Shown here: piece by piece, positions 19,001-60,900 of the stretch
How positions within the stretch are numbered: the first letter of the stretch is position 1
Layout of the letters: each line of letters opens with the position of its first letter
Assembly: GCA_965287045.1 (NCBI GenBank)
Contig: OZ336903.1
Location: forward strand, 806,001 to 870,000
Reading direction: 5' to 3'
Origin: Carcharhinus amblyrhynchos
Taxonomy: Eukaryota
DNA: 64,000 bases
Made by a program: the position numbers and the translations under genes
Notes under the pieces: generated by a model
The model's input: the letters and a program-made list of their open reading frames with translations, nothing else
The model's database searches: none
What the model was told of the DNA's origin: nothing

Positions 19001-21249
19001 CTGAAAGTAGCCGAAGTGACTGGATAAGCGCTCTATGGCCTCCGCAATCAATAGTCAGTAAATGTCAAACACATGGACCGAGACACCCGGATTTAATTCA
19101 GAGACAGCAGCCAATTCTGACCGAGTGCCGAATGATCCGGACTCCCCTTAAATGTACCTCTGTACACAGCCAACCCATCAAACCATGCCTGATCTTTTGA
19201 CTCTGCACAGGCAAGACCGGGACAGATTAGTCCGCCCGGGAATCTTTCTCGCTCTCCTCCCAGGTCTGTCCGCCCTCTCCCCCACCGTGGTTGCTGACAG
19301 GTCCGTCTCTGACTCCAGGCGTGTGGTTGTGTCGGATGAGACATTGGGGGAGGGGTGGCGGTGGAGATTTCGAAGGGTTGGGGGATCGGGATGCCTCCGA
19401 CCGTATCTCTGGGGTTCGAACCACATTTACATTTGTGGGTATAATTTCTGCACTTTGAACGAAAAAAAAGGGCATTTACAATCGGATGATTTGAATTTAA
19501 GCTAAAATTGCAGAATAAACCAAACGCTGCGGACAGATGAAGGTAAACCGTTGCTCAGCAGAAGCCTGACTGTTGTCCAGGATTTGCTCTGTGTGGCCCT
19601 GGAATGCTTCATTATTTGTTGAATGGTGAACGGAACTGAACAGTGAGGAACCAGGAGCGAACAACTTCTCTCCTGAACATCGCTAACAGCAAGCCCTCAG
19701 CTCAAGGACACAGCGGGCCTGTGCACGGTTGTGGTAATTGTTAATCACTCTCATTGCTGTTACTTTATTATAAACTAGAATCCTGGAGTTAATGTAACAA
19801 CAACTCTATTTATAGAATATTAAAATTATTCGCCAGTCTCTTTACGACTGTGTACAGTCTCAGAATACTTAATCCACCCTTTCCCGGAGAGCAGGCTGTA
19901 GATGATGGACTTATTTTGTACCTGAGCAAATCACACCGGCATCATAGGAGTGCGGCAAGAGAAAGTACAGAAAATCACCCCATGGCTTTGAGCGACATTC
20001 CCGCAGGGCGGTCTCGGTCCCTTCGCACTCAACACCATACGTCACAATGGGTCCGGATCCTTCCCCAAAGTGAGCCCCGCCTGGTGCAGAGAGCGCGGTC
20101 CCGCAGCCCAGCTCCCCACACACAACATCGGCGTCCCGCTGGTCCCAGTCACTACCAAACACAGTCCCCCACTGTCCCCTGTAGTGAATCTCCACTCTCC
20201 CAGCGCACCGACTCTGCCCATTCGCCAGTCTCAGCTTCACCGCCTCTGTAAAATACAGAAATAAACCAACAGTTATTGGCCAGCTGATGCAACAGGTCAG
20301 AGAGGAATCAAGCCAAATAAGGAGTGTGTCTAAGATCTCAATAAACACGGGGATAACATGAAATAAAGAACAACGAACAAAGACATTGACAGCACAGGAA
20401 CAGGCCCTTCCGCCCTCCTCGCCCGTACCGACCTGACTGCGCGACGTTACTAAAAACCTCTACCGTTCTCGGGACCATATTCCTCTATTCCCACCCTATT
20501 TATTTACTTGTCAAGACGCCCCTTAAACGTCACTCCGGTATCCGCTTCCACTCCCTCCCCCTGAGACATTGCAAGCGGAAGCGGGAATATGGATTGACAG
20601 TGGGAAACAGCCGCAAATCAGTTGGAAGTTGGAAACATCATTCGGCTGCGTCAGGCAGGAGTGTGGATGGGCGCTTACTTGATTCAATCCGTACAACTCA
20701 GGGCTGTTATGGTCCGCGATCCACCACGTTGACAGGGCTAATATAGTGGAATCCCAATCCTAGCATGGACTCGATATCAACCACCAATGTCGAACCAGGT
20801 GGTTCGCCCTGCTGCAACCGGCTGAAGTGGACAGTCAGGTCGTCTGCAAACCTTCCCGGGGCTATGAGATGCGACGAGTTTTCGGCGGAACCCTAATACA
20901 CGGGGGGTCTAAGGGCTTCATATTGCATTTCATTTCAGCGCTGGCTGGGAACTAGATAAGTAAACATTTATTTCCATACGGCAGTGGGAAACCTTTGCCT
21001 CTCACCCTGCTCCTCGGGGATCTAATTTCTAAATTAGGGAGCAGAACTTAAACATTTACGTGAAAACATTGCAAGAACATTTTCCTTCACAACTGACAGG
21101 CAGACATTGAACCGAATCATTGAACACAAAGATACTGAAATTGTCTCCGGGATTTATCATTCAGTTGGATGGATTAGTGCAGTAAAATATCAGATATGAA
21201 CATGGAGGGCGATTACCTGATGGATCAGCCTGGCTGTTCCCTGGTCTGC
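4022..21249 (-). CDS. Multi-exon SRCR group B membrane receptor, WC1/CD163-like (6 SRCR domains, TM, Tyr-motif tail); signal exon not found
   Basis: Phase-1 exons with GT-AG ends join in frame: 21217-21249, 19922-20245, 17216-17530, 14590-14904, 12591-12905, 11775-12092, 11633-11689, 11234-11542, 11067-11093, 10784-10900, 9625-9735, 6277-6387, 5581-5697/5712, 4022-4068. Confidence 0.85.
5090..5520 (+). mobile_element. CR1-type LINE 3' fragment (decayed)
   Basis: agaagaatgagaggtgatctcattgaaaca (RRMRGDLIE) and gaggggctgaacggccta tail. Confidence 0.75.
5581..5712 (-). CDS. SRCR receptor cytoplasmic exon ([14 protein letters not shown]...GDGGTL)
   Basis: Two in-frame acceptors (5712 or 5697), donor gtgag, YDDA motif. 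Confidence 0.75.
6277..6387 (-). CDS. SRCR receptor cytoplasmic exon ([20 protein letters not shown]...SCVP)
   Basis: 111 nt, open in phase 1, ag/gtagg boundaries. Confidence 0.7.
7362..7535 (+). mobile_element. CR1-type LINE 3' tail
   Basis: gatcagccatgatcttattgaatggcggggcaggctcgaagggccagatggcctactcctgctcc followed by ttcttatg-type tail repeats. Confidence 0.8.
9625..9735 (-). CDS. SRCR receptor first cytoplasmic exon ([37 protein letters not shown])
   Basis: NAGNAG acceptor (9735/9732), donor gtttgt, WC1-like YEEID motif. Confidence 0.85.
10784..10900 (-). CDS. SRCR receptor transmembrane exon ([39 protein letters not shown])
   Basis: Hydrophobic ~23-aa segment followed by RRR stop-transfer; ttag/gtaag boundaries. 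Confidence 0.85.
11067..11093 (-). CDS. SRCR receptor 27-nt stalk exon (GPDLSPTPS)
   Basis: ttttcatcag acceptor, gtatt donor, phase 1-1, P/S/T-rich. Confidence 0.6.
11234..11542 (-). CDS. SRCR domain 6 (d'-like)
   Basis: [30 protein letters not shown]...[12 protein letters not shown]; 309-nt exon. Confidence 0.95.
11633..11689 (-). CDS. Inter-domain linker exon ([19 protein letters not shown])
   Basis: 57 nt, acag/gttatt boundaries, phase 1-1. Confidence 0.7.
11775..12092 (-). CDS. SRCR domain 5 (e-like)
   Basis: [30 protein letters not shown]...[14 protein letters not shown]; 318-nt exon. Confidence 0.95.
12591..12905 (-). CDS. SRCR domain 4 (d-like)
   Basis: [32 protein letters not shown]...[12 protein letters not shown]; 315-nt exon. 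Confidence 0.95.
13710..13975 (-). mobile_element. HE1-type SINE (decayed)
   Basis: gtgggaggaaaccggagcacccggagaaaacccacgca core and aggcccttcggccc tail. Confidence 0.75.
14590..14904 (-). CDS. SRCR domain 3 (c-like, six Cys)
   Basis: [30 protein letters not shown]...GVGVLCS; lacks Cys2 and Cys7; 315-nt exon. Confidence 0.95.
15529..16160 (-). mobile_element. CR1/HER1-type LINE, 5'-truncated
   Basis: ORF2 C-terminus [31 protein letters not shown]...RRLRGDLIE and (atagaac)n tail. Confidence 0.95.
17216..17530 (-). CDS. SRCR domain 2 (b-like)
   Basis: [45 protein letters not shown]...[12 protein letters not shown]; 315-nt exon. Confidence 0.95.
19922..20245 (-). CDS. SRCR domain 1 (a-like, six Cys)
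   Basis: [34 protein letters not shown]...[21 protein letters not shown]; 324-nt exon. Confidence 0.95.
20368..20560 (-). mobile_element. CR1-type LINE 3' tail
   Basis: acagcacaggaacaggcccttc tail and tcctctattcccaccctatt...cccttaaacgtc. Confidence 0.65.
21217..21249 (-). CDS. 33-nt exon preceding SRCR domain 1 ([11 protein letters not shown])
   Basis: tttcatttcag acceptor, gtaatc donor, phase 1-1, in frame with the domain-1 exon. Confidence 0.65.
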
Positions 21250-28579: not shown

Positions 28580-30650
28580 TCGATCAGTGTCTTTTGTCTT
28601 TTGTTATTCAGTGCCTGACACCTGGCTGGAGTCACTCTGTCCTTTCAGATTCAGTGTCACAGGCCTGGCTGGGGTCAAACTGTGATTTGAGATTCAGTGT
28701 CAGAGACCTGGCTGGGTTCGATCTTTTATTTGAGATTCAGAGTCACAGACCTGTCTGGGTTGATTCTGTCCATTAAGATTCAGTGTCACAGCCCTGGCTG
28801 TGTTTGAACTATTATTTGAGATGCAAGTCTCATGCCTGGCAGTCTCATGCCTGAGGTTCATTGTCATAGGCCTTTATTGCTTCACTCTGTCTTTAAATTC
28901 AGTGTCACAAACCTGGCTGAATAAACTGTGTCCTCTCAGATTCAGTGTTCCAGGCCTGGTTCTGTTCAATCTGTCATCTCAGATTCAGTGGCACATGTCT
29001 GGTTGTATTCACACTGTGTCCTTTGAGTTTCAGTGTCAGAGGCCTGGCTGGAATCACTGTGTCTTTTGAGATTCAGTGTCACAGGCCGGGCTGTGTTCAC
29101 TCTGTCCTTTGACAATCGGTTTCACAGGCCGGGCTGGGTTCACTCTGCCTTTTCAATACAGTGTCAATGAACTGGTTGGAATCACTGTGCCCTTTTCAGT
29201 TTGAGTGTCACAGGTCTGGCTGTATACATTGCATCCTTTGACATTCAGCCTCACAGGCCTGTCTGTGCTCGAAATGTTATTTGAGATTCAAGCTCTCAGA
29301 CCTGACAGGGTTCACTCTGTCCATTGAGATTCAGTTTCACACGCCTGGTTAGGATCATAGAACATAGAACATAGAACATAGAACACTACAGCACAAACAG
29401 GCCCTTCGGCCCACAAGTTGCGCCGATCACATCATCACCTACCAACCTACAGACCTATCTATAACCCTCAATCTCATTAAACCCCATATACTCATCCAGA
29501 AGTCTTTCAAAAGACCCCAGCGAGTTCGCCTCCACCACCACTGACGGCAGCCGATTCCATTCACTCACCACCCTCTGAGTGAAAAACTTACCCCTAACAT
29601 CACTTCTGAACCTCCCTCCCCGCACCTTAAATCTGTGTCCTCTCGTAGCGACCATTTCAACCCGGGGAAATAGCCTCTGAGAGTCCACCCTATCTATTCC
29701 TCTCAACATTTTGTAAACTTCTATCAGGTCGCCTCTCAACCTTCGTCTCTCCAGGGAAAAGAGTCACAGCTCCCTCAACCTAACTTCATAAGGCATGCCT
29801 CCCAGTCCAGGCAACATCCTTGTAAATCTCCTCTGTACCCTTTCAATAGCTTCTACATCTTTCCTATAGTGAGGCGACCAGAACTGCGCACAATACTCTA
29901 AATGAGGCCTGACAAGGGTCTTATAAAGTTCCAGCATTACCTCCCGACTCCGAAACTCAATCCCTCGATTAATGAAGGCCAGTACACCATACGCCTTCTT
30001 GACCACCTCCTCCACCTGCGAGGCCGATGTGCTCCTTGAGATTCAGTGTTACAGGCCTGGCTGCGCCCTTTCAGATTCAGTGTCACAGGCCCGGCTGGGA
30101 TCCGTTCATCTGTTGTGATTCAGTTTCCCAGGCCTGGCTGTCTTCAAACTGTTACTTGTGATTCAGTGTCACAGACCTCGTGTACACATTGTGTCCTTTG
30201 AGATTCAGTGTCACAGGCCTGGCTGGATTCACTTTGCCATTTGCGATTCAGTGTTACAGGTCTGCCTGGGGTTACTGTGTGATTTGAGATTCAGTGTCAC
30301 AGGCCTCGCTGGATTCACTCTGTCATTTGAGATTCAGTGTTACAGGTCTGGCAGGAATCACTGTGTATTTTGAGATTCAGTGTCACAGGCCTGGCTGCGT
30401 TCGAAATGTTATTTGAGATTTAGCGTCACAGACTGGGCTGGGTTCTCTCTGTTCTTTGAGATTCAGTGTCACAGATTTGGCTCTGTTCACTCTGTCCTTT
30501 CAGTTTCAGTGTCACGGGCCTGTTTGGGTTCACTGGTTCCTTTATGTTTGAGTGTCAGAGGCCTGGCTGGGCTCACTCTGTCCTTTGAGATTTAGTGCCA
30601 CATGCCTGGCTCGGTTCACTGTGTCATTTGAGGTTCAGTGTCACAGGCTG
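28580..30650 (+). repeat. 43-bp tandem satellite (tgagattcagtgtcacaggcctggctgggttcactctgtcctt), interrupted by a LINE
   Basis: Unit starts recur at 30201, 30244 and 30287 (43-nt period). Confidence 0.95.
29355..30028 (-). mobile_element. CR1/HER1-type LINE, 5'-truncated, inserted in the satellite
   Basis: [46 protein letters not shown] and RGDLIEVYKMLRG...FFTQRVV; (catagaa)n tail. Confidence 0.95.
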
Positions 30651-31945
30651 GTCTGGAGATGGAGAGAGTGTGGTGGCTTACTGAGTGCATTGAGACAGCA
30701 TCACTACCTGATGGAGAGTCAGGTGGCTGAGTGCACTGAGACAGCATCACTCCTTGATGGAGAGTCAGGTGGCTGAGTGCACTGAGACAGCACCACCAGC
30801 AGATGTAGTGTGAGGTGGCTCACTGAGTGCAGTGAGACAGCATCAACAGCGGATGGAGAGAGCGGGGGGTAACTGAGTGCAGTGAGATAGCATCAACAGC
30901 AAATGGAGAGAGGGGTAAATGAGTGCATTGAGTCAGCATCACCAGTAGATGGAGACAGTGAGTATTTTATACTGAATGTGGTAAGACAGGGACACCAGCA
31001 GATGGAGACAGTGAGGGGTAACTGAGAGGACATGGACAGATTGCTGGAATGTGGTAAATAATCAGGGTGTTTGTGGGATGTGGCAGGTCACAGGCTGGGA
31101 GTTGAAACTGGGTAAACAGAAGGATAGCAGCAGGATGTGTGAGGTCACAGATTGGTGAAGTGTAGCAGTAAATGAGGGTGTAGGGTAGATTTTGGAGGAC
31201 ACAGAGAATGTGGTGAAATGTAGGGATGACTGAGGATAACAGAAGGCCTTCATAGTACAAAGAAAGATTGTTGATTTCTAGATAGCAGTGAGGATAATAA
31301 CAGTGTTTGGGGGACTCAGAGAGATGTGTGAGAAGTAGAAAGTGAGGATAACAGTTGGATATGAGAGGACACAGGTAGATTGGTGAGACATAGTTAGCAG
31401 TATGGATAATAGCAGCGTTTGGGGTGCCAGACAGATTGCTGAAATGTAGTAAATAATGATGATTACCATCAAATTTGGAAGGACACAGAGACATGGGAGA
31501 AAGGCAATAGCAGTGAGAGTGACAACAGGAATTGGCAGGAAACAGACAGAATGGTGAAACATTGTAATGAGTGAGGATAGAGCTAGGATTCTGAAAGACA
31601 GGCAGTGTCCTTTAGCATAACAATGAGTAAGGATAACAGGAGGATTTGTCGGGATTGTAAATGTTGGGGATATATCCAGGATTTCTGTGGGCACTGACTG
31701 ATTGGATATCAATCAGTAAGCTTTACTGATTGGATATCAGTAAGCAGTGAGGATATCAGTTAGCTTTTGGAGGATAGGGATCCGTGTTAAAATCTAATAA
31801 ACAATGTGGACAACAGATTGTTTCCGGGTGATAGTGAGAGAATGGTGAAATGTAGTAAATAGTGTGGACAACAGGAAGTTTCGCGGAGCTATAGACAGAA
31901 TGGTGAAATGTGGTAAACAGTGTGGATAACTGTAGGTTTCAGGGG
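30650..31945 (+). repeat. Degenerate ~40-45-bp minisatellites (gatggagag...ctgagtgcactgagacagcatca; gaatggtgaaatgtagtaaacagtgtggacaac)
   Basis: Visible tandem recurrences; duplicated at ~47745-48960. Confidence 0.8.
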
Positions 31946-33457
31946 AATCAGGCAGCTGTAGATCCAGGATAGATGGGGCTGGAGGGGGAGGCAGGGGTCA
32001 CTGTGGCTCATCTGCTGTGGTCTTGCCCGTGCCCAGCTCGATCTGATCTGTGCAGCCCCACACACTGGAGAATGTTTGATAGCGAATGAAGATTAGAAAT
32101 CTAACTAATGTGTCAACACCTTCAGAGGGTCACACACTGTATTCGAACAAACTGAACTGGATTACACTGAATGAGAAGTCATGTAATGTAACCCTCACAG
32201 ACTTCATGAATGAAGTACATTTTTTTTTAAGAGGGATGGGGGGGGGGGGGGAGGTGTGGGGGGGGGGGGCGGGGCTGGGGAAATTAGATACAGACTCCAG
32301 CCTGGTTGTTCCTTTAAACAGGAGATGATATCTGTCTGTGTGTATGTGTGTTCCTGTCCCTGGGCACAGTTCCCAGAGAGTTGAAAATACTGCATCTCTC
32401 TCTCTCTCTCTCTCTCTGCAGAGCTGCTGCTTAAAGACACATTGACAACATTTATCTGACGGAAACATCTCTCTCATTCGCTTCCTCTCCTCCCCCAATG
32501 AGGGCTTCTACTCTCAAAAAAAGCCTAAACCGTATTTTTTTGCAGCTCTGATCTGTTGTGATTCATTAACCATTAAACACAGGACACACACATTCAGACA
32601 CCGAGACAGACAACAACAGAGGTTGTTTTGGAAATCCGAAATTGAATTGTAAACACAGCAACAAATAACTTGCAAAAAAATGTTTTAGTTCAGGCAGCTG
32701 AAGCAAAAAACGAACTTTGTAAGAATCAGCAAAGGATGCAAATCTGTAACCAATGGAGTGCAGGATGAACAAATTATATAATCCACATTCAGGCCTGGTC
32801 TCTCCCAGGCTACCAGTTACTTTAAACCCATTTTCCCTCAGCTCCCAGTTTTGGTGATGTGAAGGAAGAGCCTTGGGATAAACCGTTTGCCTGCTGCTCA
32901 ATAACCCACCCACCTACCCACTCACTCTCTCACACACAAACACATACACGCAAACACACGGACGCAAACACACAAACACACACACATACAAACACACAAA
33001 CACACACACATACAACAAAACCACCCCCCCCTCAAACACACACAATACCACCCACCCAACACCACCCCCCTCCACCCCCACCCCACCTCCGCCCCCCCCC
33101 CCCCCCCCCCCCCGCCTCAAACACACACAAAATCACCTCCATCAAACACAAACAAACCCAACCCCCCACAACCCTCTTGAGACAGGTTGTTGGTCTGGGC
33201 CGTACCTGGAGTCGGTGGGTTCAGGTGAGGTGCAGGAGATGTGGTTGGATGGCGGTTGATTGGGGATGTGTGGGCAGTTTGTCTGACTCAGTGAGTTTAT
33301 GAAAAGGCTGGAGATCCATTGCCCTGTCTCTCTACACGTGGATTGGTAACTATCAGGGGAACTCTGTCTTTGTGAATGTGTGTGTGTTGCACTGATATCT
33401 GAAACCCATTTACCCAGCACAAAGCCCCAGGCCCTGGATCTCTCTCCCTCGATGGTA

Positions 33458-45000: not shown

Positions 45001-46138
45001 AGCAGAATGAACAATAAAAATTAACATTGACTAGAACAATTTCAGTACCTTTGCAAGGGAACCCCTCCTGAATTCTGCCACATAACAGACTTTGTAGTTT
45101 ATCCACAGTAAAAGCAATATGTTACTTGATTAGGTACCATATTTGACGACAGTGCATGTCTTCACTGAAGGTAATGTTCTTTCCTTCCTGATGTATAATT
45201 TCCCTGTTTTTTTTTTCCTGTCTCCTACAGCTAACTTAGCCACGATTGTGATATTAGCCTTTCGAAAATGTGGCCTCTCCAAATGTGTAACGCGCTACCT
45301 GGTGGCCATGGCAACAGCAGATCTACTCATTATTATTATTGACTTGATACTAAGACACATTCCAATTGTTTACTGGGAACATTTCCAATTTCTGTGGTCT
45401 ATGCCTGTGTGCAATATCCATGCAGTTTTCTTGTTTGCAGCCACTGACTGTTCTGTTTGGATGACTGTGACTTTCACCTTTGATCGATGTGTTGCTATTT
45501 GTTGCCAGAAGCTGAAAAATAAATATTGTACGCAGAAAACTGCTGCTGTGGTTCTCGGAACTGTTGCTGTGTTGAGCTGTTTCAAGAATACCTTCTGGTA
45601 TTTTATGTTGACAGAATCATACTCGATGAGGAATAGCCCATGGTTCTGTTCAATAACATTCAGTGTACAGCTATCTCCAGTTTGGATAGCTGTTGAGTTT
45701 CTGCACCACATTCTAACCCCATGCTTACCATTTGGCCTGATTTTGTTGCTAAATGTTGTCACCATCAGGCATATTGCAGTGAATAGCAGAGCCCGTAGAA
45801 GACTTCGAGCTGTGAGAAGTGGGGATAGTTCCAAAGACAAAGAGATGGAGGGTCGACGGAAATCTATAATTTTACTGTTTGTTATCTCTTTGAATTTCAT
45901 CGTGTTGTGGGCTGTTATAATGGTGTTTTCAATAAACAGTCGCGTGTATTATCTAATCTATTATTCTGGAAAGATGAGTGATTATGTGCAGGAAATGGGC
46001 TTCATGTTGCAGCTCATGAGTTGCTGCACAAACACTTGCATTTATGCCGTGACCCAGACTATGTTCAGAGTACAATTGAAAATTGTGCTGAAATATCCGT
46101 TTATTTCAGTTGTTCGATGCTTTCAAAGATATAAATAA
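39087..46138 (+). CDS. GPR139/GPR142-like class A GPCR, two exons (39087-39393 + 45231-46138), 404 aa, intact
   Basis: Exon 1 ends YYPILAIVGVP G|gtaag; exon 2 starts tcctacag|CT and gives ANLATIVIL, YLVAMATADLL, FTFDRCVAIC and CCTNTCIYAVTQTMFR. 307+908=1215 nt in frame. Confidence 0.92.
40743..40950 (+). mobile_element. HE1-type SINE
   Basis: ggcacggtggcacggtggttagcactgctgactcagagcgccagggactcggg head; cccacagtccgaaagatg body. Confidence 0.85.
40955..43622 (+). mobile_element. CR1/HER1-type LINE ORF2 (RT domain), disrupted, in the GPCR intron
   Basis: [60 protein letters not shown]; tgttct tail. Confidence 0.95.
42203..42595. mobile_element. Penelope-like insertion with inverted arms and 13-bp TSD, nested in the LINE
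   Basis: TATCTCAGAGAAG at 42190-42202 and 42596-42608; ~42243-42405 is nearly the reverse complement of ~42430-42596. Confidence 0.85.
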
Positions 46139-46889: not shown

Positions 46890-47745
46890 AACAGGCCTGG
46901 CAGGGTTCAATCTGTCCTTTCAGATTCAGTGTCATAGGCCTGGTTGGGGTTACTGTGTAATTTGAGATTCAGTGTCAGAGGCCGGGCTGTGCTTGAAATG
47001 TTATTTGAGATTCAAGGTTTCAGGCCTGGCAGGGTTCACTCTGTCTATTGAGATTCAGTGTCATAGGCCTGGCTGTGTTCGGACTTTATTTGAGATTAAG
47101 TGTCAAGCTCTGTCTGTGTTAATTCTGTCCTTTAAGTTTCAGTGTCACAGCCCTGGTTGTATTTGAACTATTATTTGAGATTAAGTGTCACAGGTCTGTC
47201 TGTGTTAATTCTGTCCTTTAAGTTTCAGTGTCACAGACCTGGCTGTGTTTGAACTGTTATTTGAGATTCAGTGTCACAGGCCTGTCTGTGTTAATTCTGT
47301 CCTTTAAGTTTCAGTGTCACAGCCCTGGCTGTGTTTGAACTATTATTTGAGATGCAAATCTCATGCTTGGCAGGGTTCAGTTTGTTCATTGAGATTCACT
47401 GCCATAGGCCTTTAATGCTTCACTTTTTCTTTAAATTCAGTGTCACAGACCTGTTTGGATAAACTGTGACCTCTCAGATTCAGTGTTCCAGGCCTGGTTC
47501 TGTTCAATCTGTCATTCAGTGTCACAGGTCTGGCTGTATTCACACTGTCTTTTGAGATTCATTGTCACAGACCTGGTAGGATTCAGTATGTCCTTTGAGA
47601 TTCAGCGTCACGAGCCTGTGTGGGTTCACTGTATCCTTAATGTTTGGGTGTCACAGGCCTGGCTGGGTTCACTCTGTCCTTTGACAATCACTGTCACATG
47701 CCTGGCTCGGTTCACTGTGTCATATGAGGTTCAGTGTCATAGGCT
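46890..47745 (+). repeat. 43-bp tandem satellite, second array
   Basis: Same gagattcagtgtcacaggcctggctg unit; an 86-bp dimer is visible at ~47090-47350. Confidence 0.95.
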
Positions 47746-50700
47746 GGTCTGGAGATGGAGAGAGTGTGGTGGCTTACTGAGTGCATTGAGACAACATCAA
47801 CAGCGGATAGAGAGAGTGAGGGGGAACTGAGTGCAGTGAGATAGCATCAGCAGCAAATGCAGAGGGGTAAATGAGTGCATTGAGTCAGCATCACCAGTAG
47901 ATGGAGACAATGAGTATTCTAAATGAGTGTGGTAAGACAGGGATACCAGTAGATGGAGACAGTGAGTATTCTAACGGAGTGCGGTAAGACAGGGACACCA
48001 GGAGGTGGAGACAGTGAGGGGGTAACTGAGAGGACATGGTCAGGTTGTTCTAATGTGGTAAACAATAAGGATGTTTGTGGGATGTGGCAGGTCACAGGCT
48101 GGGAGTTGACACTGGGTAAACAGAAGGATAGCAGCAGGATGTGTGAGGTCACAGATTGGTGAAGTGTAGTACTAAACGAGGATGTAGGGTAGATTTTGAG
48201 GACACAGACAATGTGGTGAAATGTAGAGATGACTCAGGATAACAGGAGGCCTTCTTAGTACAAAGAAAGATTGTTGATTTTTAGACAGCAGTGAGGATAA
48301 TAACAGTGTTTGGGGGACACAGAGAGATGTGTGAGAAGTAGAAAGAGTGAGGATAGCAGCAGGATGTTAGAGGACACTGGTAGATTGGTAAGACATAGTT
48401 AGCAGTATGGATAACAGCAGGGTTTGGGATGCCAGACAGATTGCTGAAATGTAGTAAATAATGATGAATATCATCAAATTTGGGAGGACACAGAGAGATG
48501 GGAGAAGGGCAATAGCAGTGCGAGTGACAACAGGAATTGGCAGGACACAGACAGAATGGTGCAATGTTGTAATGAGTGAGGATAGAGCTCGGATTCTGGA
48601 AGGCAGACAGTTTCCGTTAACATAACGAAGAATAAGGATAACAGGAGGATTTGACAGGATAGCAAATGTTATGGATATATCCACCATGTCTGTGGACACT
48701 GACTGATTGGATATCAGTAAGCTTTAGTGATTGGATATCAGTAAGCAGTGAGGATATCAGTTAGCTTTTGGAGGATAGGGGTCCGTGTTAAAATGTAATA
48801 AACAATGTGGACAACAGCAGGTTTTGGGGGATAGTGAGAGAATGTTGAAATGTAGTAAACAGTGTGGACAACAACAGGTTTTGGGGGATAGTGAGAGAAT
48901 GTTAAAATGTTGTAAACAACGTGGACAACAGCAGGTTTCAGGGAAATGTGGGAAACAGTGTGGATAAAAGCAGTGTTTCGGAGAACATGCACGGCTTGGT
49001 GAAATGTTGGAAAGAGTGATGGCAGAGGCAGGATTTAGGAAGCTAATGAGAGATTGTGAGGATAACAACGGATGTGGAAGAGGCAGGAAATAGATGAAAT
49101 GTACTAATCTGTGCGGATAGTGGAGGATTTGTGTGTTAGGGGTCGTGCTGGAATGAAGCATGGCGCTGTATTGAGTTGTCAGGGAAATACAGTTCTCTGC
49201 GTGGCGATCGAGAGACAGAAATGAAGAGAAAGGAATCAAACCGTGTATCTAACTGTCATAATCTTTATTTAATAGGATGGAAGCTGCTACTAAATGGAAT
49301 TCAAATACATATGACAATAATAAACAATAAATCTTGGATTATAATCCCGGCTCTGCTCCATAATGTAATGCGAAATAAGAGCTTTAATGCAGACATTGTA
49401 ATCCCGGATATACATTCTATTCTGCTTCTCATTGAACAGAATGCGGACTCACACAAACTGAGAAGAAAAATGCAAATTTTAAAAAGGAAATCAGAAACTG
49501 CAATCCCGATATCTGCAGTTGAAGCATATTCCACACAGTGATATTTGTGGGAAGGTTAAGTAGTCTCCACTTTGATGTAATGCAGAGTCATATATCTGAG
49601 GACACCACATCCTGGATTTGTTGACGACTATTACCTGAAACTGTAAAAGAAATAATGATAAATGCAACACAATCCACAAACAGCTAAACACATCACATGT
49701 GCTTGTATTTTTTTTTACAATATTCCAGGCGAACCGGCTGTTTATTTCTCTCTAAAACACACTGAACCTTCTCCCTGATCCTTTCATTGTAATTCACCAC
49801 TGGAAATACAGCAGGGTTTGGATATTGCTGGATGTCAGTAGATGATAAGGAGAGTTTCAGACAAACGCATTACTAGCGTGACCTGTTGGAAAATGTTTGG
49901 ATGATGTGGAACTTCCTGGGACATGAGAGATGTCCTCTTAGTCCTCAAGAGGCAAAACTCCAAGTTCAGGGAAGTTAAAATGGTGCTCACTGAGATCATG
50001 CTTTGACCACATTGTAGGTCAGAATTTAAGATAAGGCACGGGATTTTTTTTATCCCTTCTGATTAGAGCATTTGGTGAACAGTTAGATATGTAACAGGTT
50101 TGGAGGAAGGGGTGGCTGGGACAGGGACGAAGGGAAGGCCTGTGATAGACAGGAGAAAGAATGAGAGAAAAGTGAATCCTCCCGAGCCAAAGGGAATGGA
50201 GATGGAGAGAGAAAAGAAACAAAGGAAAAGAAGATGTGCCTGGAACGGGGGTGGGGTGGGGTTGGTGGCGGGGGGGGAATGGGGTGGTGGGGGCTGCGGA
50301 CTGAAAGAAGGAGAAAGGAATCAAAGAAAAGGAAACAGAATGGACTCAGAGTTTCCTTTTTTCTGAATCTGTTGAACTGGATGTTGAGTCCAGAACGCTG
50401 TAAACTGTGTAGGAGGTGGGCGAAAGGAAGGATCTCCCCCGGACCTGCTCCAGAACCTGGTTAAAGCAATCCTCTGTAGATCCAGGATGGATAGGGCTGG
50501 AGGGAGAGGCAGGGCTCACTCTGGCTGATCTGCTGTGGTCTTGCCCGTGCCCAGCTCGATCTGATCTGTGCAGTCCCACACACTGGATAATGTTTGATAG
50601 GAAATGAAGATTAGAAATCTAACTAATGTGTGAACTCCTTCAGAGGGTCACACACTGTATTCTAACAAACTGAACTGGATTACACTGAATGGGAAGTCAT

Positions 50701-51417
50701 GTCATGTAACCCTCACAGACTTCATGAATTAAGTACGTTTTTATAGAGGGATTGGAGGGTGGGGTGGTGGGAATTAGATACAGACTCCAGCCTGGTTGTT
50801 CCTATCAACAGGAGCTGATAGCTGTCTGTGTGTATGTGTGTGTGTCTGTGTCCCTGGGCACAGTTCCCAACGAGTTGAAAATACTGCATCTCTCTCTCTC
50901 TCTCTCTCTCTCTGCAGAGCTGCTGCTTAAAGACACATTGACGACATTTATCTGACGGAAACATCTCTCTCATTCGCTTCCTCTCCTCCCCCAATGAGTG
51001 CTTCTACTCTCAAAAAAGTCGAAATTGCTTTTTTCAGCTCTGATCTGTGGTGATTCATTAACCATTAAACACAGGGCACACACATTCACACACCGAGACA
51101 GATAGCAACAGAGGTTGTTTTGGAAATCAGAAATTAAATTGTAAAGGCAACAACAAATAACTTGCAAGAAATTGTTTGAGTTCAGGCAGTTTAAGCAAAA
51201 AATGAACTTTGCAAGAATCAGCAAAAGATGCAAACTTGTAACCGGTGGAGTTCAGGATGAACAAATTGTATAATCCACATTCAGGCCTGGTCTCTCCCTG
51301 CCTGGGCAAGGCTGCCGGTTACTTTAAACCCATTTCCCCTCAGCTTCCAGTGTTGGTGATGTTAAGGAAGAGCCTTGGGATAAATTGTTTGCCTGGTGCT
51401 CCGTCAGGGACCCACCA

Positions 51418-51456
<39 letters not shown>

Positions 51457-51766
51457 TTCCCTCCCTGAAATTAAATTGTCACAATTCACATTGGTGTTTT
51501 CCTTCACATTTCATTGAAAGATGAAATATAGATAGGAATGATTCGGGAGAGAGAGAGGGTTGGCAAGAACATTGGAGACACAGAGACAGAGAAATTCTAA
51601 CCCCCCCACCCCTCATCCAAAAATAAATTCCCGGAGAAAGAGAGAGGAAAAAAATAGAGTCACACAGCACAGGAACGGGCCACTGAGCCCACCAGGCCTC
51701 TGCTGGCCATCAAATCCCAATCTATACTGCTCCCATTCCCCAGCACTTGCTGCAGAGCCTACGATG
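47313..51766 (+). repeat. Segmental duplication copy B (partner ~28780-34051)
   Basis: See copy A; carries an extra ~1.5 kb at 48945-50474. Confidence 0.9.
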
Positions 51767-52583
51767 TCCAACAGGCAGGATAGCGGCAGGGCACCAGGCA
51801 CCAGAGGCAAATATTCAACACATTAACAACTGCTGCATTCAGAATTATTGAAACATCTGGATTGAAAAAGAATTTTTCATGATGAGGACATAGAGAGTTG
51901 ATATCAGAGTAAGGTAGTGACATGGGTGAGGGCAGAAGGAAACAAATATTATGGAACACAGGAAAATAGGGAGATAGAAAATAACAAAAAAAAACTGAAC
52001 GTAGGCAGGGCATGCGGAAATAGAGCAATTGCAGATCTGTAAGGGCACTCATGATAAAAACTGACTACTTTAATTTGTATAACGCCTTTTACACACTCAG
52101 AATATCCCCCAGAGAATCATTGCCAATGCTAAAACTGCCAGCAACGAAATAACATTCCAAGTGTTGCAGGGAATACAGCACAAACAAAAATGGTACGTAT
52201 TACAAACTATCCGGGTATTTAATCTTTTCCAGTGTGTTTGTCAGTGAATAGCGATGTCTTAGCATAACGATTCCTCACAGCAGACGCACAATATGTTGGA
52301 GAGCGGAAGATTAAACAACCACCACAACAAGGACGAAAATAAGTGACAAAGTAACCAGTGGACAAGGTAACCTTATACATTATTTGCATTTTATTATGAG
52401 TCTCTGGTTGAATCATTTACCCGATTTTATTTTTAAGTTTGTGATCAGTAACCTGCATAAGAGAACACATTTAATCTCTGATCGCAGACACTGTTTGTCT
52501 GTGCGCTGTTCTTCAGTAAGAAGCAACTTGGAGCCAATCCCCACATTATGTGAGTGAACAGCTTAATATTTAACACGTCTCAA

Positions 52584-52589
52584 TATAAA
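52584..52589 (+). promoter_or_regulatory. TATA box of defensin gene 1
   Basis: TATAAA starting 48 nt upstream of the ATG; conserved at 57186-57191. Confidence 0.6.
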
Positions 52590-52631
52590 GAACTCCCATA
52601 CTCAAGTCATCTGATTACAACTCATTGGAAA

Positions 52632-53632
52632 ATGGGGAAAGCGCTGTGCACAGTATTTGGTGTCTTGCTGCTGGTGCAGGAAATTGCTGTCCAAGACGTA
52701 CAATTCTACCCTCGTGAAGAAGAAGGTCAGTCTCTCTTATAGTTGACAAAATACGGTTGTTCTTACTCTGCATTGTAACGTCTTCTTTGTGTACAACTTT
52801 CTATCACACGTATCCATCCCTGGTTTGGTTCTCAGATCTGGCAAATGTCACCGCTTTATTCCTGCCAAAATTTGAATGATTTAATTTTAAATTCAACAAT
52901 GTTCTTTAGCTTTCTTTTTGTTCTCCGTCCTATTCCCGCAGCGCCTCCCTCCACCCCCCCCCCCCCCTCCACTCTGCCACCCCACTCCACGATCTTCACA
53001 TCTTTATCTCCTAAACGGTTACCAGACCCAAAATTTTCAGAGAACTCTGATCTCCAAAATTAACCAGCCGAATCTCATCACTTCATCCAAGGTGAATTTA
53101 CCTTCTCCTTCTTGGGCTCAAGTTCTGGAGTTCCCTCACTGCTCCTCTCTGATATTTGGTTTCAAGCCTAATCAGATAATTAACTTCATAGTGCATTATT
53201 ATAAGAAAGTCACCAATAAATCCAATCAGTTGTACAAACGAATAAATATTAAATATAAAGTGAAGGGAATTTATAACTCATCGTCACCAGCAATGATTTT
53301 TTTGGAATAATGAAGATAAATTCAGAGGAAGCTCGTTTAGCACATGAAGGTGAAAGGTGATTTTGTAAGATTGTATTTTAACAACCGCCCTCATCTGCAT
53401 GTAACAAACCCGCCTCGGATTCCTGATGTCCTCATGTCTACCGTCTGTTTCATCACCCACAAATGCTGACCAAAAAATCCTCTTTTGTTTTGTTTCAGAG
53501 GAAAGGTTCGAATGCGGAATATTTGGTGGGGTCTGCCAGTATGAACCCTGCGCACCGGACCGGGTTCGACTGCTTTCTGATCTGTGTTGGTATGGCCAAT
53601 ACTGCTGTGCGGATCCAGCACTTTTTAAATGA
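52632..53632 (+). CDS. Beta-defensin-like prepropeptide 1, two exons (52632-52725 + 53499-53632), 75 aa
   Basis: MGKALCTVFGVLLLVQEIAVQDVQFYPREEE|EERFECGIFGGVCQYEPCAPDRVRLLSDLCWYGQYCCADPALFK*. Phase-1 gtcag...tttgtttcag intron; C-X6-C-X4-C-X11-C-X5-CC; AATAAA at 53736. Confidence 0.88.
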
Positions 53633-54655
53633 AATATCTGAATTATAATAGTTTCCTTAGCAACCAGCTTCAAATCGGCCGTCCTTTCATTGTGGCTGCA
53701 ACAGATCTCTGCATTTCAGAATTATAAAATATATCAATAAAACTCTCTGGACTGATCACCGATTATTGTGCAGGTCTTGTTTCTCATCCGGTTTCTATAT
53801 TCCTGCATTAACACAAAGGGAAAATATATCAGAAAATGTCACACTGGGGACATAGATTCATTCAGTGAAGAAACGGCCTTCAGGCGACCACTTCTGCTCC
53901 ATAAATATCGATCACTAATGGCAAAGTAAACATATTTCTCTGTACTTATCCCATATTATTGAATATTAAAATAATTCAAGCCCATTCAAATACGTTTTTA
54001 GCTTGGAAATGTTATGACCTTGCCTACCTTCCCAGGCAGTTCATTCTAATTTCACATTACATTTTGAGTGAAGAAGTTGCCTTTTCTCAAATCCCATCTG
54101 AATCTCGTGACCCTCATCCTAAAAGTGCGCCTTCATTATTGGCCCCTCAACCAAGGGAACAGGCTTTACTCCAGAGACAGGCCATTGAATAAACACAGGA
54201 GGCCCCAATGACGTTCCCACGTGTATCAGTCACCTCCCCCCCGCCCCCCTCTGTTTCTCCCTCTCCGTCTCTTGCACACTTCCCCAGATCGTTATCTGTC
54301 CGACATTCCATCTCTGCTCCTGGCTCTCGATAACCTGATTTCTGCTCTGGTTTTCTATCTCAAGATGAATCTGGATTGAAATTCTCTCTCTCAAAGTTTC
54401 TGTCAGGCCTTTCAAAATAATAATCACAATCAAAAAAAAATGAGAGGGGACGGGGCAAGAAAATCCACAGTCCCATCCTGAAGAGGGTGCTGCACATTTT
54501 ATTGAACCATTGAATTCAGTCACTTCAACCCTGTTGGGGAATTAAGCGAATGTAAAATTGCTCCTGAGATTTAGACCTTGAAGTGCGGCCGAGTCACAGA
54601 GGCTGCATTATTCCACAGGTAGAAAGAACAAATCCCCCTCCATCCCCCGAGTTAG

Positions 54656-55351
54656 TGTAAGGAAATTTGTACTCAATATGTAAGCATGTTAGTACTTAGA
54701 GAATTTGTACTGAATAATTGTACCTAAACTGGATATGAAATACGGAATCACGGATAGTATTAGAGTGTCTTCCTTGAAGTAGAATTGGGATGGGTAATCA
54801 AGTATAGCTGATTTGTAACCTAATATAATCAAGTGTAGCAAATGTGATCAAAGCAGGAGGCCCAGAGAAGCAGTATAGCAGTTACTTACTAGCAAATGCA
54901 ACCAATAGTCCCTTGGGGGGACAATGGACACAACCCAGCTGTCCAGCTTGAGATTGACCGTAATAAAAAGGAAGTAATAAAGTGAGCATGTTTTCTTCAC
55001 ATTCAGCCTAAGTCAGCTAAACCACTATTAGTGTACAAGCAGAGTCGTAAAGATAAAAGCAAGGGATATAACCACCATGGTTTTAAGAAGAAAAGAGAGG
55101 AAACAGGGGGTGATCAATCTCAAGCAAGACAGATAAAGGGTCAGTGGGTCGTAAAAGCGAGATAAGGATCTTGAGGTATGGAGCTGAAATGTGCTTAAAA
55201 AGACTGTAAGCCGATGGCTCGTTGGAGTGTTCCGGACATCCCGGCTTTATTCTCTTGTGCTGGAAAATAAAGTCTACTGCTTGGAGGATGACAACTCAGA
55301 CTCTCTGTTTCAATCGGGTTAAATAAGTTGTCGTCTTGGGGAACCACGACA
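54656..55351 (+). mobile_element. Solo LTR (696 bp, TG...CA, 4-bp TSD TTAG)
   Basis: ttag|TGTAAGG...CACGACA|ttag; aataaagtctac poly(A) signal at ~55266. Confidence 0.8.
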
Positions 55352-57185
55352 TTAGACAGAACATTTTTTTTTCATCCACATCCACAAATGCCAGCGCCGT
55401 GTCTAAAAACACAAGGAGGACTCTGGGACTGAGAACAAGCCTTTCTCCCAGGCTCAGGAATTTGAATATTGGCTCTCTCTCCCGCCCGAGTGCTTTACAG
55501 TGAGAGGGAGAAAGAGAGACTGGGAATGCTGCAATCAGGATCCACGGGGAATCCCACACTGCAGGAGGAAACAATTCACCCCCAGAGCCTCCGTCTCTTT
55601 CCCCTACCATCTCCCTGAGCCCCTGACATTCCTCAAACCGTCTCTGTTCAACCTGTCAAAAGTGATTGATCCGTAATGGAACCAACACATCCATCGAGGA
55701 TTCCACGAGATATTTTGAACCATCAGTGATACATTTTAGGCACAATTTGCAACCCAATCTGCTCTGATATCGCTCATTGTGCAATTAACTATGCCACAAT
55801 GCATCAATGATTCAATGAAGAGAGTGTCAACGCCTGTTGTGAGCAGAAGCAGAGAAATCTAATTTGAAATAATATCCTACTGAAGGCCCAACACGGAGAA
55901 TACAACAGGTGCAGAACCGTGAAGGAAGTCTAAAATGTCAACGCAAATCATTGTCAATGACACCAGATTCGATCTATGTTTTGCAGAACTGACTCACCCA
56001 AACATGAGTACGGGTTGGCAATTCAACAACTATCTGGGGGAGGAGGCTCCACAATGGTGTGACAGGCCCGCATGTGAATATAATGGAGGAGGTTAAATCA
56101 TCTCAGATAATCTACAGGCAGAAATGTTGGTTTGATGTTTCACATTAGTTTCATGTGTTCAGCATGCCAGTCTTCATCCATTTTACACCCGTCCACGTGA
56201 TATCAAGGAACGAATGAAGGTGCTGGAAAATGACCAGTCATTAATGCAGATTATCCAAAGCCAATAGTGTGGAGGTTGTGTTGTTTTCATACAAACAGCT
56301 GATCCCACAGATCACAAATAAGAGGGCTCATTTCTGACAGTTAGCTAAAGTTCAACAGGCAGGGTAGCGGCAGGGCACCAGGCACTTGAGGCAAATATTC
56401 AACACATTACCCACTGCTGCATTCAGAATTATTGATACATCTGGATTGAAAGATAATTTTGCATGATGAGGACAGAGAGAGTTGGTATCAGAGTAAGGTA
56501 GTGACGTGGGTGAGGGCAGAAGGAAACACATATGATGGAACGCAGGAAAATAGGGAGATAGAAAAATAACAAAAAAAAACTGAACGTAGGCAGGGTAGTC
56601 AAGAATGGGGAAATGGAACAATTAGAGATATGTAAGCGCACTAATGATAAAAACTGACGACTTTAATTTGTGTAACGCCTTTTACACACTCAGAATATCC
56701 CACAGAGAATCATTGCCAATGCTAAAACTGCCATCAATGAAATAACATACAAAGTGCTGCAGGGAATACAGCACAAACAAAAATGGCACGTATTACAAAC
56801 TATCCGGGTATTTAATATTTTCCACTGAGTTTCTCAGTGAATAGCGATGTCTTAGCATAACGATTCCTCACAACAGACACACAATATGTTGGAGAGCGGA
56901 AGATTAAACAACCACTACAACAATGACAGAAATAAGAGACAGAGTAACCAGTGGACAAGTTAACCTTACAAATTATTTGCATTTTATTATGAATCTCCGG
57001 TTGATTCATTTACCCGATTTTTTTTTTAAGTTTGTGATCAGTAACCTGCAGAAGAGAACACATTTAACACATTTAATCTCTGATCACATGAACTGTTTGT
57101 CTGTGAGCCGTTCTTCAGTAAGAAGCAACTTGGAGCGAATCCCCACATTATGTGAGTGAACAGCTTAATATTTAACACGTCTCAA

Positions 57186-57191
57186 TATAAA
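57186..57191 (+). promoter_or_regulatory. TATA box of defensin gene 2
   Basis: TATAAA starting 48 nt upstream of the ATG at 57234. Confidence 0.6.
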
Positions 57192-57233
57192 GAACTCCCA
57201 TACTCAAGTCATTTCATTGCAACTTATTGGAAA

Positions 57234-58222
57234 ATGGGGAAAGTGCTGTGCATAATATTTGGTGTCTTGCTGCTCGTGCAAGAAAGTGCTGTGCAAGAAG
57301 CCCGCGTCTACGCTCTTGAAGAAGACGGTCAGTATATCTTACGGTTGCCAAAATACGGTTGTTCCTACTCTGCATTGTAACGCTTTTTTTTAATACAACT
57401 TTCTATCACTCGTGCCCATCACTGGTTTGGATCTCAGATCTGGCAAATGTCACCGCTTTATTCCTGCCAAAATCTGAATGATTTAAGTTTAAATTCAAAC
57501 AATGTTCTTTAGCTTTATTTTTGTCGTCCGTCCTATTCCCATACACATCCCTCCTCCCCCCCCCCCCCCCCCACCCGCCCCCCACCCCAACCTCCTCCAC
57601 GATTTTCACATCTTTATCTCCTAAACGTTTACCAGGCCCAAAATTTTCAGAGAACTCTGCACTCCAAAAATAATCAGCCGAATCTCATCACTTCATCCTA
57701 GGCGAACTTACCTTGTCCAGGTCCCTCACTGCTCCTCACTGATACTTGATTTCAAATCTTATCACATAATTAACTCCATAGTGCACTATTATAAGAAAGT
57801 CACCAATAATTCCAATCAGGTGTACAAACGAAAAAATATTAAATATAAAGTGAACGGAATTTTTAACTCACTGTCACCAGCAATGTTTTTTTTGAACAAT
57901 TAATGTAAACGTTAGAGGAAGCTCGTTTAGCACTTGAAGGTGAAAGATAGTTTTGTAAGATTGTATTTTTACAACCGCCCTCATCTGCATGTAACAAAAC
58001 CGCCTCGGATTGCTGATGTTCTCATGTCTACTGTTTATTTCATCACCCATAAATGCAGACCAAATATTCCTCTTTTGTTTTGTTTCAGAGGCGAGGTTCA
58101 GATGCAGAATACTTGGAGGGGTCTGCCGATATGGAAGCTGCGCACCGGACCGGGTTCTTCCGGTTTCTAATCTGTGTTGGTATGGCGAGCACTGCTGCGC
58201 GGATCCAACACTTTTGCAATGA
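57234..58222 (+). CDS. Beta-defensin-like prepropeptide 2, two exons (57234-57327 + 58089-58222), 75 aa
   Basis: MGKVLCIIFGVLLLVQESAVQEARVYALEED|EARFRCRILGGVCRYGSCAPDRVLPVSNLCWYGEHCCADPTLLQ*. Same splice sites and Cys spacing as gene 1; AATAAA at 58326. Confidence 0.88.
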
Positions 58223-58829
58223 AACATTTGAATTGTAATCGTTTCCTTAGCAGCCAGCTTCAAATCGGCCGTCCTTTCATTGTGGCTGCAACAGATCTCT
58301 GCATTTCAGAATTACAAAATATATCAATAAAACTCACTGGACTAATCACCGAATATTGTGCAGATCTGGTTTCTCATCCGGTTTCTCTATTCCTGCATTA
58401 ACACAAAGGGAAAATATATCAGAAAATGTCACACTGGGGACATAGATTCATTCAGTGAAGAAACGGCCTTCAGGCGACCACTTCTGCTTCATAAATATCG
58501 ATCCCTAATGGCAAAGTAAACATATTTATCTGTACTTATCCCATATTATTGAATATTAAAACAATTCAAGCCCATTCAAATCCGTTTTAAGCTTGGAAAT
58601 GTTCTGACCTTGCCGACCTTCCCAGGCAGTTCATTATAATTTCACATTATATTTGAGTGAAGAACTTGCCTTTTCTCAAATCTCATCTGAATCTCGTGGC
58701 CCTCATCCTAAAAGTATGCGCCTTCATTATTGACCCCTCAACCAAGGGAACAGGTGTTTTTTCATTCATCCTCTCTACCCTATCACCTAAACCATGCCTC
58801 CCTGAAAGTTATTTGCTCTAAACAAAGGA

Positions 58830-60200
58830 ATATAGAAAAAAGAAGCAAGAATTATCAATTTGATATTTTGAACGTATCCTCCCAATCATCTTGATCACGG
58901 CTGTTCATCAAGTTCAATATCCTGACCCCACCCTCCCTACTATATCCATTGAGCCCGTGATATCAAGAGGTACACCAAATTTATTATTCAAAACACACAA
59001 CTGTTGGGCCCGACTACTTTTGTAGTACTTAATTTCATCGGCTCGTCACAAGCTCTGGGCGATTATTTTCAGCTCACCTCAGTTCTAAAAGTTTTATCCT
59101 TTCTCTGAAGATTACGTAACCATTTTTCGACATCCAACCAATTGGAACATTCTTTGTGATTCTGCCCTGTCCAATCCCGTTGGAATTTTATGCGTTTCTA
59201 CAAATCTCCCCTCACTCTGCTAACCACCAATAAAAACAATCCTCACCGAGGAGCATCTGCTCATTTGACAGACCTGCCATCCCAGGAATCAGCCTGGAAA
59301 ACCTTCTCCGTACTCCCTCTATATCAAGGGCATCGTTCCTCAGGTAAGGATAGAGAATTCAGGATATTGCCTCAAAAACGCCCTGCACAATGTTAATGAA
59401 ACATCCCCATTGTTATACTCAAATCCTCTTGCTATTAAGTCCAACGTACCATTTCCCTCTGTTATTGTCTGCTGTAGCTGCAAACTTCCTTTCAGATAAA
59501 TAATTTAAAGAAAATGAAATTCAATCCTTAAAAATAACAAGCAATGCCAACTCACTTGTTCAAATGCTCCATCCCAGGCAGCATTCTGGGAAATGTCCTC
59601 TGTGCAGCCTCCAGTGTTACCACATATTTCCGGTAGTGAGGTAACCAGAATTGCACACAGTATTCCAGGTGTCATTCGCCATTCCTTCATTTTGTTTCTC
59701 CTCCAGCAGTGATCTTGTCACACTTATCACAGAGAAATCAATCTGTCACTGCTCTGCCATTCTAACCATCCAATCATTATCAGCCTTTAAACAGTAATCA
59801 CTCTCCAAAGCATAGTGTCATCTGCAAACGTGTTAATTGTTCTCTCCTACCACATTACTATCCATGTTGTTTATGAATATAATAAACAATACACGTTCCA
59901 GTGCTGATCATTATAACTTTGGATACCGGCATGCCGTCCATCGAACAGCCTCATATCATAATACTTCGAGGCCCATTACGAAGCCAGTTTCCAATCCAGC
60001 TCGCCAAGTTTCCCCAAATCACATCGGCTTTTCCCTTTTCAATCAATCTCCCAAGTCGGAAATTGCCAAATATTTTGCAAAGATCCACAAAACTATAAGA
60101 ACTGAACTTCCCTTGTCCACACACAAAAAAATCGACCAAAATTGTTCGGCATGAGATCCACCTGACAAAATCATATTGGATAGTTATAATTAACTGATGT
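58830..60200 (-). mobile_element. Patchwork of decayed CR1-type LINE fragments
   Basis: GNLASWIGNWLRN, tcatctgcaaac (FADD on the minus strand) and ccagaattgcacacagtattccagg remnants. Confidence 0.6.
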
Positions 60201-60224
60201 TTTTCCAAGTGAATATTCATCTTT

Positions 60225-60900
60225 TAAACAAAGCGAATTTTGAAAGTTCGAAATGGCAGAACTCTTAGAAACTTTAACAGATTAATCCGGGACTGCAAGC
60301 CAACAGTTTCCTGGAAGTGGCAGCAGGAGAGGAGCACTTGGCCAAGAAAATACGTGTCATGCCTGCCTTTATCTGTCGGTGTCTGGAGTATAAGAATTTT
60401 GCAGCTCGTTTGAACTTTAATCAGATATAGAACACAGAGTACAGCTCTGTTTGGCACATGGAAGGATGTGATGGATTTGGATAGGGTACAGAAAACATTT
60501 TAACAGTTATCTGCTTTGAATGGTATTAGCTGTGAGGAGAGTTTGGGCAGAGATTGTTCGATTTCACTTGAACTTTGGAGAATTGGGTATCTGATAGAAC
60601 TTTGCAAATTGAGAGAGCCGTGGATAAAATGGACAGTTGAACTCGTTTTCCAGGGGGAAAGAAAAACGTCAGTTATTTGGGTTCTGATGTTGAAGGCAAA
60701 GGGGGGAATGTTTAAAGGAAATGTAACAGGTAATTTCTTTACACGGGGGAGGGGGAGAGGGTAGGTTCTTGAATGTATGGTCAGTGGAGGTTGTAGGAAC
60801 AGATTCAGTAACAACGTTTAAGAGGAGTCTTGACAGTTACATGAATAGGCAGTGGATAGCGTGATATTGTAAACACAACATGTTTTTTAGCTTTGAAAGT
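60225..60900 (+). mobile_element. Decayed CR1-type LINE 3' fragment
   Basis: ggaaggatgtgatggatttggatagggtacag, GYLIEL, FKGNVTGNFFT. Confidence 0.65.

Follow-up and report, generated by a model that had tools for sequence, protein, structure and literature searches.

Two genes of an 18-copy shark cluster with a predicted beta-defensin fold: subfamilies likely set apart by positive selection on the mature peptide

The locus raises the question of why two neighbouring genes for small cysteine-rich peptides differ more in the exon encoding the peptide than in the DNA next to it. Both lie in a stretch of 64,000 nucleotides from the shark Carcharhinus amblyrhynchos (assembly GCA_965287045.1, contig OZ336903.1, positions 806,001 to 870,000 of the forward strand), the whole of which is referred to below as the window. 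The two two-exon genes are each located within a 2.4 kb repeat, the repeats being 89% identical, and each encodes a precursor of 75 residues with a hydrophobic N-terminal stretch and a pro-piece on exon 1 and a six-cysteine peptide on exon 2 (Table 1). An initial annotation had ascribed their divergence to positive selection after a recent duplication, with a reversal of charge that possibly split a cationic antimicrobial role from an anionic or receptor-directed one. The explanation favoured here, to which a probability of about 0.6 is assigned, is that the genes are two of 18 in a shark cluster encoding predicted secreted peptides of predicted beta-defensin fold, and that the subfamilies of this cluster were likely split by a burst of positive selection on mature-peptide residues other than the cysteines; the result would be a spread of charges for a likely host defence against different microbes.

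Eighteen full copies were found in the genome, all on one contig (C34) between 0.25 and 1.75 Mb (a cluster of about 1.5 Mb). All frames are open and free of frameshifts, 17 of the 18 keep the six cysteines, and the precursors are 72–75 residues long. Six subfamilies were recovered in the trees, gene 1 being grouped with copy L002 and gene 2 with copies L013 and L005. Exon 2 distances amounted to 2.3% between gene 1 and L002, 0.8% between gene 2 and L013, and 18% between gene 1 and gene 2. The two genes are not sisters and belong to different subfamilies of the cluster; the recent duplication assumed for the pair was wrong, since for each gene a far nearer copy exists at another place on the contig. 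These nearer copies, L002 and L013, sit where the entire cassette of about 9 kb is repeated in inverted orientation, so that the exon 2 distance of the window pair ranks high (81st percentile of 153 pairs). In a run of another organism, one contig has 8 differences from gene 2 in 163 nt; subfamily C, the subfamily of gene 2, may therefore be older than the split from that organism.

Six close pairs of copies are found in G000:C34 571k-1518k (L016+L010, L001+L014, L013+L002, L015+L004, L009+L008 and L006+L007), each made up of two different subfamilies on the same strand, 2.5–4.6 kb apart; the six are not independent, because two pair types each occur twice as cassette copies. Among single copies, L017 has lost the fourth cysteine and is left with five, L016 carries a GC splice donor in place of GT, and L003 and L004 have a common 9-nt deletion in the pro-piece. 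Older relatives with about 65–68% identity, stop codons and lost exon 2 cysteines were located on contigs C66 and C179 (L021:2044-2574, L022:2174-2703, L023:2205-2574); to judge by these defects, they are likely pseudogenes, indicating birth-and-death turnover. Fragments of the gene unit, either exon 1 only or 3' flank only, are dispersed in the cluster (G000:C34:1118650-1118863, 794548-794680, 924037-924115). A second beta-defensin-like family (L027:1498-1596 on the minus strand and L028:1501-1599 on the plus strand, contigs C49 and C56) gave no DNA match to gene 1; its Pfam score of 23 bits exceeds the cut-off, and its charge is close to neutral.

All counts given for the pair in the initial annotation were reproduced. 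The coding part of exon 2 differs at 24 of 134 nt, with a changed residue in 16 codons and a purely synonymous difference in two, and 13 differences fall into the first 270 nt 3' of exon 2; exon 1 differs in 11 of 31 residues (16 of 94 nt), and all six cysteines are retained in both genes. The excess of exon 2 over the 270-nt flank goes beyond chance (Fisher p 3e-5). Of the comparators for the pair, the 3' flank has diverged least (26/530, against 65/866 in the 5' flank and 89/752, or 11.8%, in the intron), and relative to the intron the excess reached only p 0.04.

Positive selection was assessed on the 18 genes with codon models of our own implementation (M0, M1a and M2a). M2a was preferred over M1a with a twofold log-likelihood difference (2dL) of 24.5 and a non-synonymous to synonymous rate ratio (omega) of 4.2 at 26% of the codons; with the trees and codon frequencies varied, 2dL ranged over 18.8–27.0 in four additional runs. 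The signal was concentrated in the mature peptide (2dL 22.1, M0 omega 1.93), with values of 4.4 for the signal peptide and 0.6 for the pro-piece, and posterior probabilities above 0.9 were obtained for residues 38, 55, 57, 59, 65, and 75. For the mature peptide, omega was estimated at about 5 in a quarter of the sites. Under a stricter null model, which allowed for site-rate variation, double hits and CpG, 2dL was 13.8 for the mature part (p 0.001) and 10.9 for the whole coding sequence. Omega was 2.97 on the 9 branches between subfamilies (above 1, p 0.0006) versus 0.93 on the 24 branches within them, and 3.8 on the stem to the subfamily of gene 2 (above 1, p 0.019). Between subfamilies, the proportion of differing non-synonymous sites (pN, 0.164) was 1.8 times that of synonymous sites (pS, 0.091), the non-coding value being 0.081, and the excess persisted when CpG columns were removed (0.121 vs 0.067). 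Support for positive selection on the mature peptide across the family is moderate.

Recombination was evident in the non-coding columns, in which neighbouring sites were more compatible than after shuffling (p 0.002); the same test on the coding columns gave p 0.61 with 35 informative sites only. In the 3' flank of gene 1, a tract of 149 columns is identical to the subfamily C copy L005, and between L013 and L014 there is a single difference in the 432 columns that start with exon 2, compared with 26 in the 964 columns before it (p 0.001). The initial annotation had named gene conversion in the flank as a finding that would tell against its reading, and the recombination and the identical tract bear this out in part. 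Gene conversion has likely made the flanks more uniform. Added up over the deep branches, length decreases in the order codon positions 1+2 (0.41), position 3 (0.25), intron (0.19) and flanks (0.065), and the branch length within subfamilies is flat (0.34–0.49 in all partitions). This gradient is the divergence peak expected where selection resists conversion.

The cysteine spacing of both genes (6-4-11-5-0) fits the beta-defensin motif C-X4-8-C-X3-5-C-X9-13-C-X4-7-CC, as stated in a passage of PMC515299. A structure model with three strands was obtained at a predicted local distance difference test score of 76.6. The top rows were hBD-2 and hBD-1 in a Foldseek search (prob 0.8–0.9, E 0.27 or more) and hBD-1 in a VIA structure search (Z 3.9, root-mean-square deviation 1.8 over 35 residues); the scores are low, as they would be for any model of 43 residues. 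The mature peptide is predicted to take the beta-defensin fold, and spacing and fold would imply disulfide pairing C1–C5, C2–C4, C3–C6. With the Pfam family Defensin_beta (PF00711), gene 2 scored 17.1 bits against a cut-off of 21 and gene 1 gave no match; 8 of the 18 members match weakly and below the cut-off (best E 0.0047). The first match of an atlas search was a beta-defensin cluster at 0.82, which is a lead only. No protein relative was found for exon 2 of gene 1 among proteins of 23–76 residues, nor for the family alignment among longer proteins (722 candidates), and among solved structures a sequence search gave one row at E 1 and a profile search none; this lack of relatives is weak evidence, because search sensitivity is low for 43 residues. 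Two matches among 1.84 billion representatives were rejected, as they were tandem-repeat proteins whose score was the sum of short repeats.

Contigs of three RNA-like runs connect the two coding exons directly, and the intron between them is left uncovered except for its poly-C run. No RNA record was among the holders listed. A near-identical contig of gene 2 exon 2 was not among the matches listed for two RNA-like runs, which is no evidence of silence.

The net charges proposed earlier, −2 for gene 1 and +1 for gene 2, were reproduced when counted from Phe35, the assumed cleavage point on which they rest, and neither shows the clear net positive charge of a classical cationic antimicrobial peptide. 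When only the signal peptide is removed, both peptides are negative (−6 for gene 1 and −2 for gene 2). From Phe35 on, 15 residues are changed, of which eight alter the charge, five upward and three downward (p 0.36). The three downward changes, R55L, Q65E, and K75Q, had been left out of the initial annotation and run opposite to the changes listed there. Across the 18 copies the predicted charge extends from −6 to +2 (11 negative, one zero, six positive), and the window pair covers only the middle of this range. Arginines at 36, 38, and 45 are fixed in the three members of the subfamily of gene 2 and missing from gene 1, and, to judge from the aligned residues, the subfamily of gene 2 appears to be the one that shifted toward positive charge. 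Position 36 is Gly in the four other subfamilies, so that the exchange of Glu for Arg at this position was probably two separate changes; the order and direction of single changes were read only from the make-up of the alignment columns.

The favoured reading was weighed against an account without positive selection, in which the exons are older than flanks reset by conversion and CpG-rich, weakly constrained redundant copies drift. The following results weigh against selection. For the pair, the ratio of non-synonymous to synonymous divergence (dN/dS), the check that the initial annotation had named, was 1.0 for exon 2, because synonymous sites diverged as much as non-synonymous ones (pS was raised as much as pN), and 0.91 for the whole coding sequence and 1.18 for the mature part (p 0.49); it was dropped as proof of selection, which holds for the mature peptide at family level and is not shown by this pair. 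CpG-prone columns (40/134 in exon 2 vs 187/1265 in non-coding DNA) contain 12 of the 24 exon 2 differences of the pair, and without them the excess of exon 2 over non-coding DNA was 12/94 vs 75/1078 (p 0.04). The division into branches between and within subfamilies was drawn after the trees had been seen, and a within-subfamily omega near 1 means little purifying selection. Gene conversion, to which the recombination in non-coding columns and the identical tract in the flank of gene 1 point, can mimic positive selection (as described in part of PMC3924837). When 25 gap-masked non-coding blocks were read as codons, seven exceeded the 5% threshold and one reached 22; one of the seven still gave 21.4 under the stricter null, which was rerun on these seven only, the blocks overlapping across frames. 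(A first control without gap masking, with 6/20 blocks over 5.99 and 2/20 over 22, was redone with masking.) The site test is therefore inflated on these paralogs, and the empirical p is near 0.04–0.08, not 1e-5. The enrichment in charge changes, which speaks for selection (29 of 49 residue variants alter the charge vs 36% expected), is a generous comparison because the expectation counts single steps. The spliced contigs differ from gene 1 at 11–21 places per about 160–180 nt and are therefore relatives in another organism, from one study, and the RNA status of the runs is a guess of the tool. An account by drift is nevertheless unlikely. Against it stand a between-subfamily pN of 1.8 times pS and an excess that survives removal of the CpG columns and the stricter null; the mature-peptide M0 omega of 1.93 was attained by none of the 25 control blocks (maximum 1.58); all 18 frames are open, 17 of them with six cysteines; and neutral conversion offers no reason for sparing the exons.

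Two further explanations accept selection and differ in what was selected. A single recent tandem duplication, followed by selection that drove apart a cationic peptide with antimicrobial action and an anionic one directed at receptors, as first proposed, would be in line with the high omega on the stem to the subfamily of gene 2, with its three fixed arginines, and with the difference in charge sign from Phe35. The pair is not a sister pair, however, the change at position 36 probably occurred in two steps, and the direction of the charge changes is not significant. A charge of +1 or +2 is barely cationic and weak for a membrane-lytic defensin, avian beta-defensins reaching +10 (passages of PMC4571063); low charge is read there as weak direct killing, and charges as low as those of the shark family argue against simple electrostatic lysis. 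In flounder, bacteria are inhibited and leukocytes attracted by a beta-defensin that is anionic (according to parts of PMC8698591), and therefore the sign of the charge does not sort roles; a split of this kind is highly improbable. Selection could also be real with a target other than microbes, the peptides either binding receptors of the shark itself and evolving in step with them, or having a part in reproduction. Eleven of the 18 peptides are net negative, so that the acidic pro-piece has no cationic counterpart to offset; the window is shared by scavenger-receptor exons and a GPR139-like receptor gene without introns, both from expanded families; and beta-defensins reportedly have roles in reproduction and cell signalling. 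This alternative is judged improbable: the neighbourhood is no evidence of binding, and rapid diversification with changes of charge is what host–microbe conflict usually shows.

Under the favoured reading, with selection between subfamilies for host defence, early duplications would have produced about six subfamilies, and selection would have fixed changes mainly at residues 38, 52–59, 65, and 75, rich in charge changes, around a fixed core of cysteines and glycines. Later copies within subfamilies would have changed at an about neutral rate, often being copied as two-gene cassettes. Conversion may have homogenised the flanks between subfamilies, with tracts that cross the exons selected against, leaving the divergence peak over the gene. 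Once freed of signal and acidic pro-piece, the peptides would act at a mucosal or blood-cell surface, where, at charges of −6 to +2, specific target binding or cell recruitment would outweigh electrostatic membrane lysis. A secreted host-defence role is most likely, as judged from fold and family only. More tentatively, and with the odds rather against it, sharks may have a radiation of their own, so far unannotated, of mostly anionic peptides of beta-defensin fold, in which selection adjusts the surface charge within a span of eight units and keeps the subfamilies distinct despite conversion. The genes would be kept as pairs of unlike subfamilies that may act together, and the peptides would bind a specific target, either microbial or a host receptor, and not act by lysis.

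Table 1. Features of the two genes and their surroundings (window positions).
Feature	Position	Strand	Remarks
Repeat unit with gene 1	51766..54163	+	89% identity to 56350-58754
Two-gene cassette	51978..60848	+	Inverted copy about 180 kb off on the same contig, 95–97% identical, carries L002 and L013
TATA-like box, gene 1	52584..52593	+	Same 10-mer present in 18/18 copies
Gene 1 (subfamily A), coding exon 1	52632..52725	+	Signal-like hydrophobic stretch and acidic pro-piece; GT donor in phase 1
Gene 1 intron, 773 nt	52726..53498	+	Skipped in spliced contigs of related copies, RNA-like runs
Gene 1, coding exon 2	53499..53632	+	Six-Cys peptide C-6-C-4-C-11-C-5-CC, predicted charge −2 from Phe35
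Gene 1, likely polyadenylation signal	53736..53741	+	AATAAA, from sequence
Tract (approximate) without differences between gene 1 and L005, a copy of subfamily C	53817..53965	+	149 scored columns, end 53965; likely gene conversion, crude corrected p 0.03
Repeat unit with gene 2	56350..58754	+	
TATA-like box, gene 2	57186..57195	+	10-mer common to all 18 copies
Gene 2 (subfamily C), coding exon 1	57234..57327	+	
Gene 2 intron, 761 nt	57328..58088	+	
Gene 2, coding exon 2	58089..58222	+	Six-Cys peptide, predicted charge +1 from Phe35; Pfam Defensin_beta matched weakly
Gene 2, likely polyadenylation signal	58326..58331	+	AATAAA, from sequence

Between the two genes, a 696-nt insertion (54656-55351) starts with TG, ends with CA, and has a 4-nt direct repeat on either side; it is missing from the inverted cassette copy and looks like a solo long terminal repeat that entered after the cassette had been duplicated. 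Elsewhere in the window, a run of scavenger-receptor (SRCR) exons, two of them confirmed by Pfam, occupies 11139-20459 on the minus strand, and 45134-46138 on the plus strand holds the intronless frame of the GPR139-like receptor, a family greatly expanded in sharks; its named top matches are from sharks and rays, the closest being smooth-hound at 79%. At 28590-32930 and 46890-51430 there are tandem-like repeats of degenerate sequence and a larger block in duplicate, 78–87% identical, and these elements also adjoin the inverted cassette copy.

No paper on defensins of sharks, chondrichthyans, elasmobranchs, catshark or Callorhinchus was found in the literature searched, which did not include subscription journals or supplements, so that an earlier description is possible. 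The section on fish antimicrobial peptides in a 2019 review names no shark defensin (PMC6795676), beta-defensins are described in part of PMC7203481 as spread from teleosts to mammals, and the mechanism of anionic defensins is called mostly unclear in a passage of PMC12278569. The process is well known, clustered duplication with positive selection on the mature part having been described for mammalian defensins (PMC515299, in part); the mostly anionic shark family looks undescribed, and its lineage and charge profile may be new. If the more tentative reading of a radiation in sharks is true, it would extend beta-defensins from bony vertebrates to cartilaginous fish and provide a natural test series; the 18 near-identical scaffolds from −6 to +2 lend themselves to a natural experiment on the action of anionic defensins.

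The shark family resembles the vertebrate beta-defensins (PF00711; structural matches hBD-1, hBD-2, AvBD3, and CpoBD13) in its six-cysteine spacing, its three predicted strands, the division into a putative signal/pro exon and a mature exon, clustering, and selection on the mature part, the last as in the mammals of PMC515299. Unlike them, it stays below the Pfam cut-off, has 20–30% identity to the solved members, is mostly anionic, has SRCR and GPR139-like genes as neighbours, and has no protein relative in two large libraries. Likened by description, the anionic beta-defensins of olive flounder share precursors of 67–77 residues, a short pro-region, and an anionic active peptide (sections of PMC8231796); teleost beta-defensins have three exons and up to seven copies according to the same sections, whereas the shark family has two coding exons and 18 copies. 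In humans, the genes for the red and the green opsin offer a parallel for the divergence peak, in that selected exons stay distinct while the non-coding DNA is homogenised (PMC3924837, in part), a situation that the gradient of branch lengths fits; the opsin case is one pair, established by a cross-species test, and the shark case comprises 18 copies in one genome.

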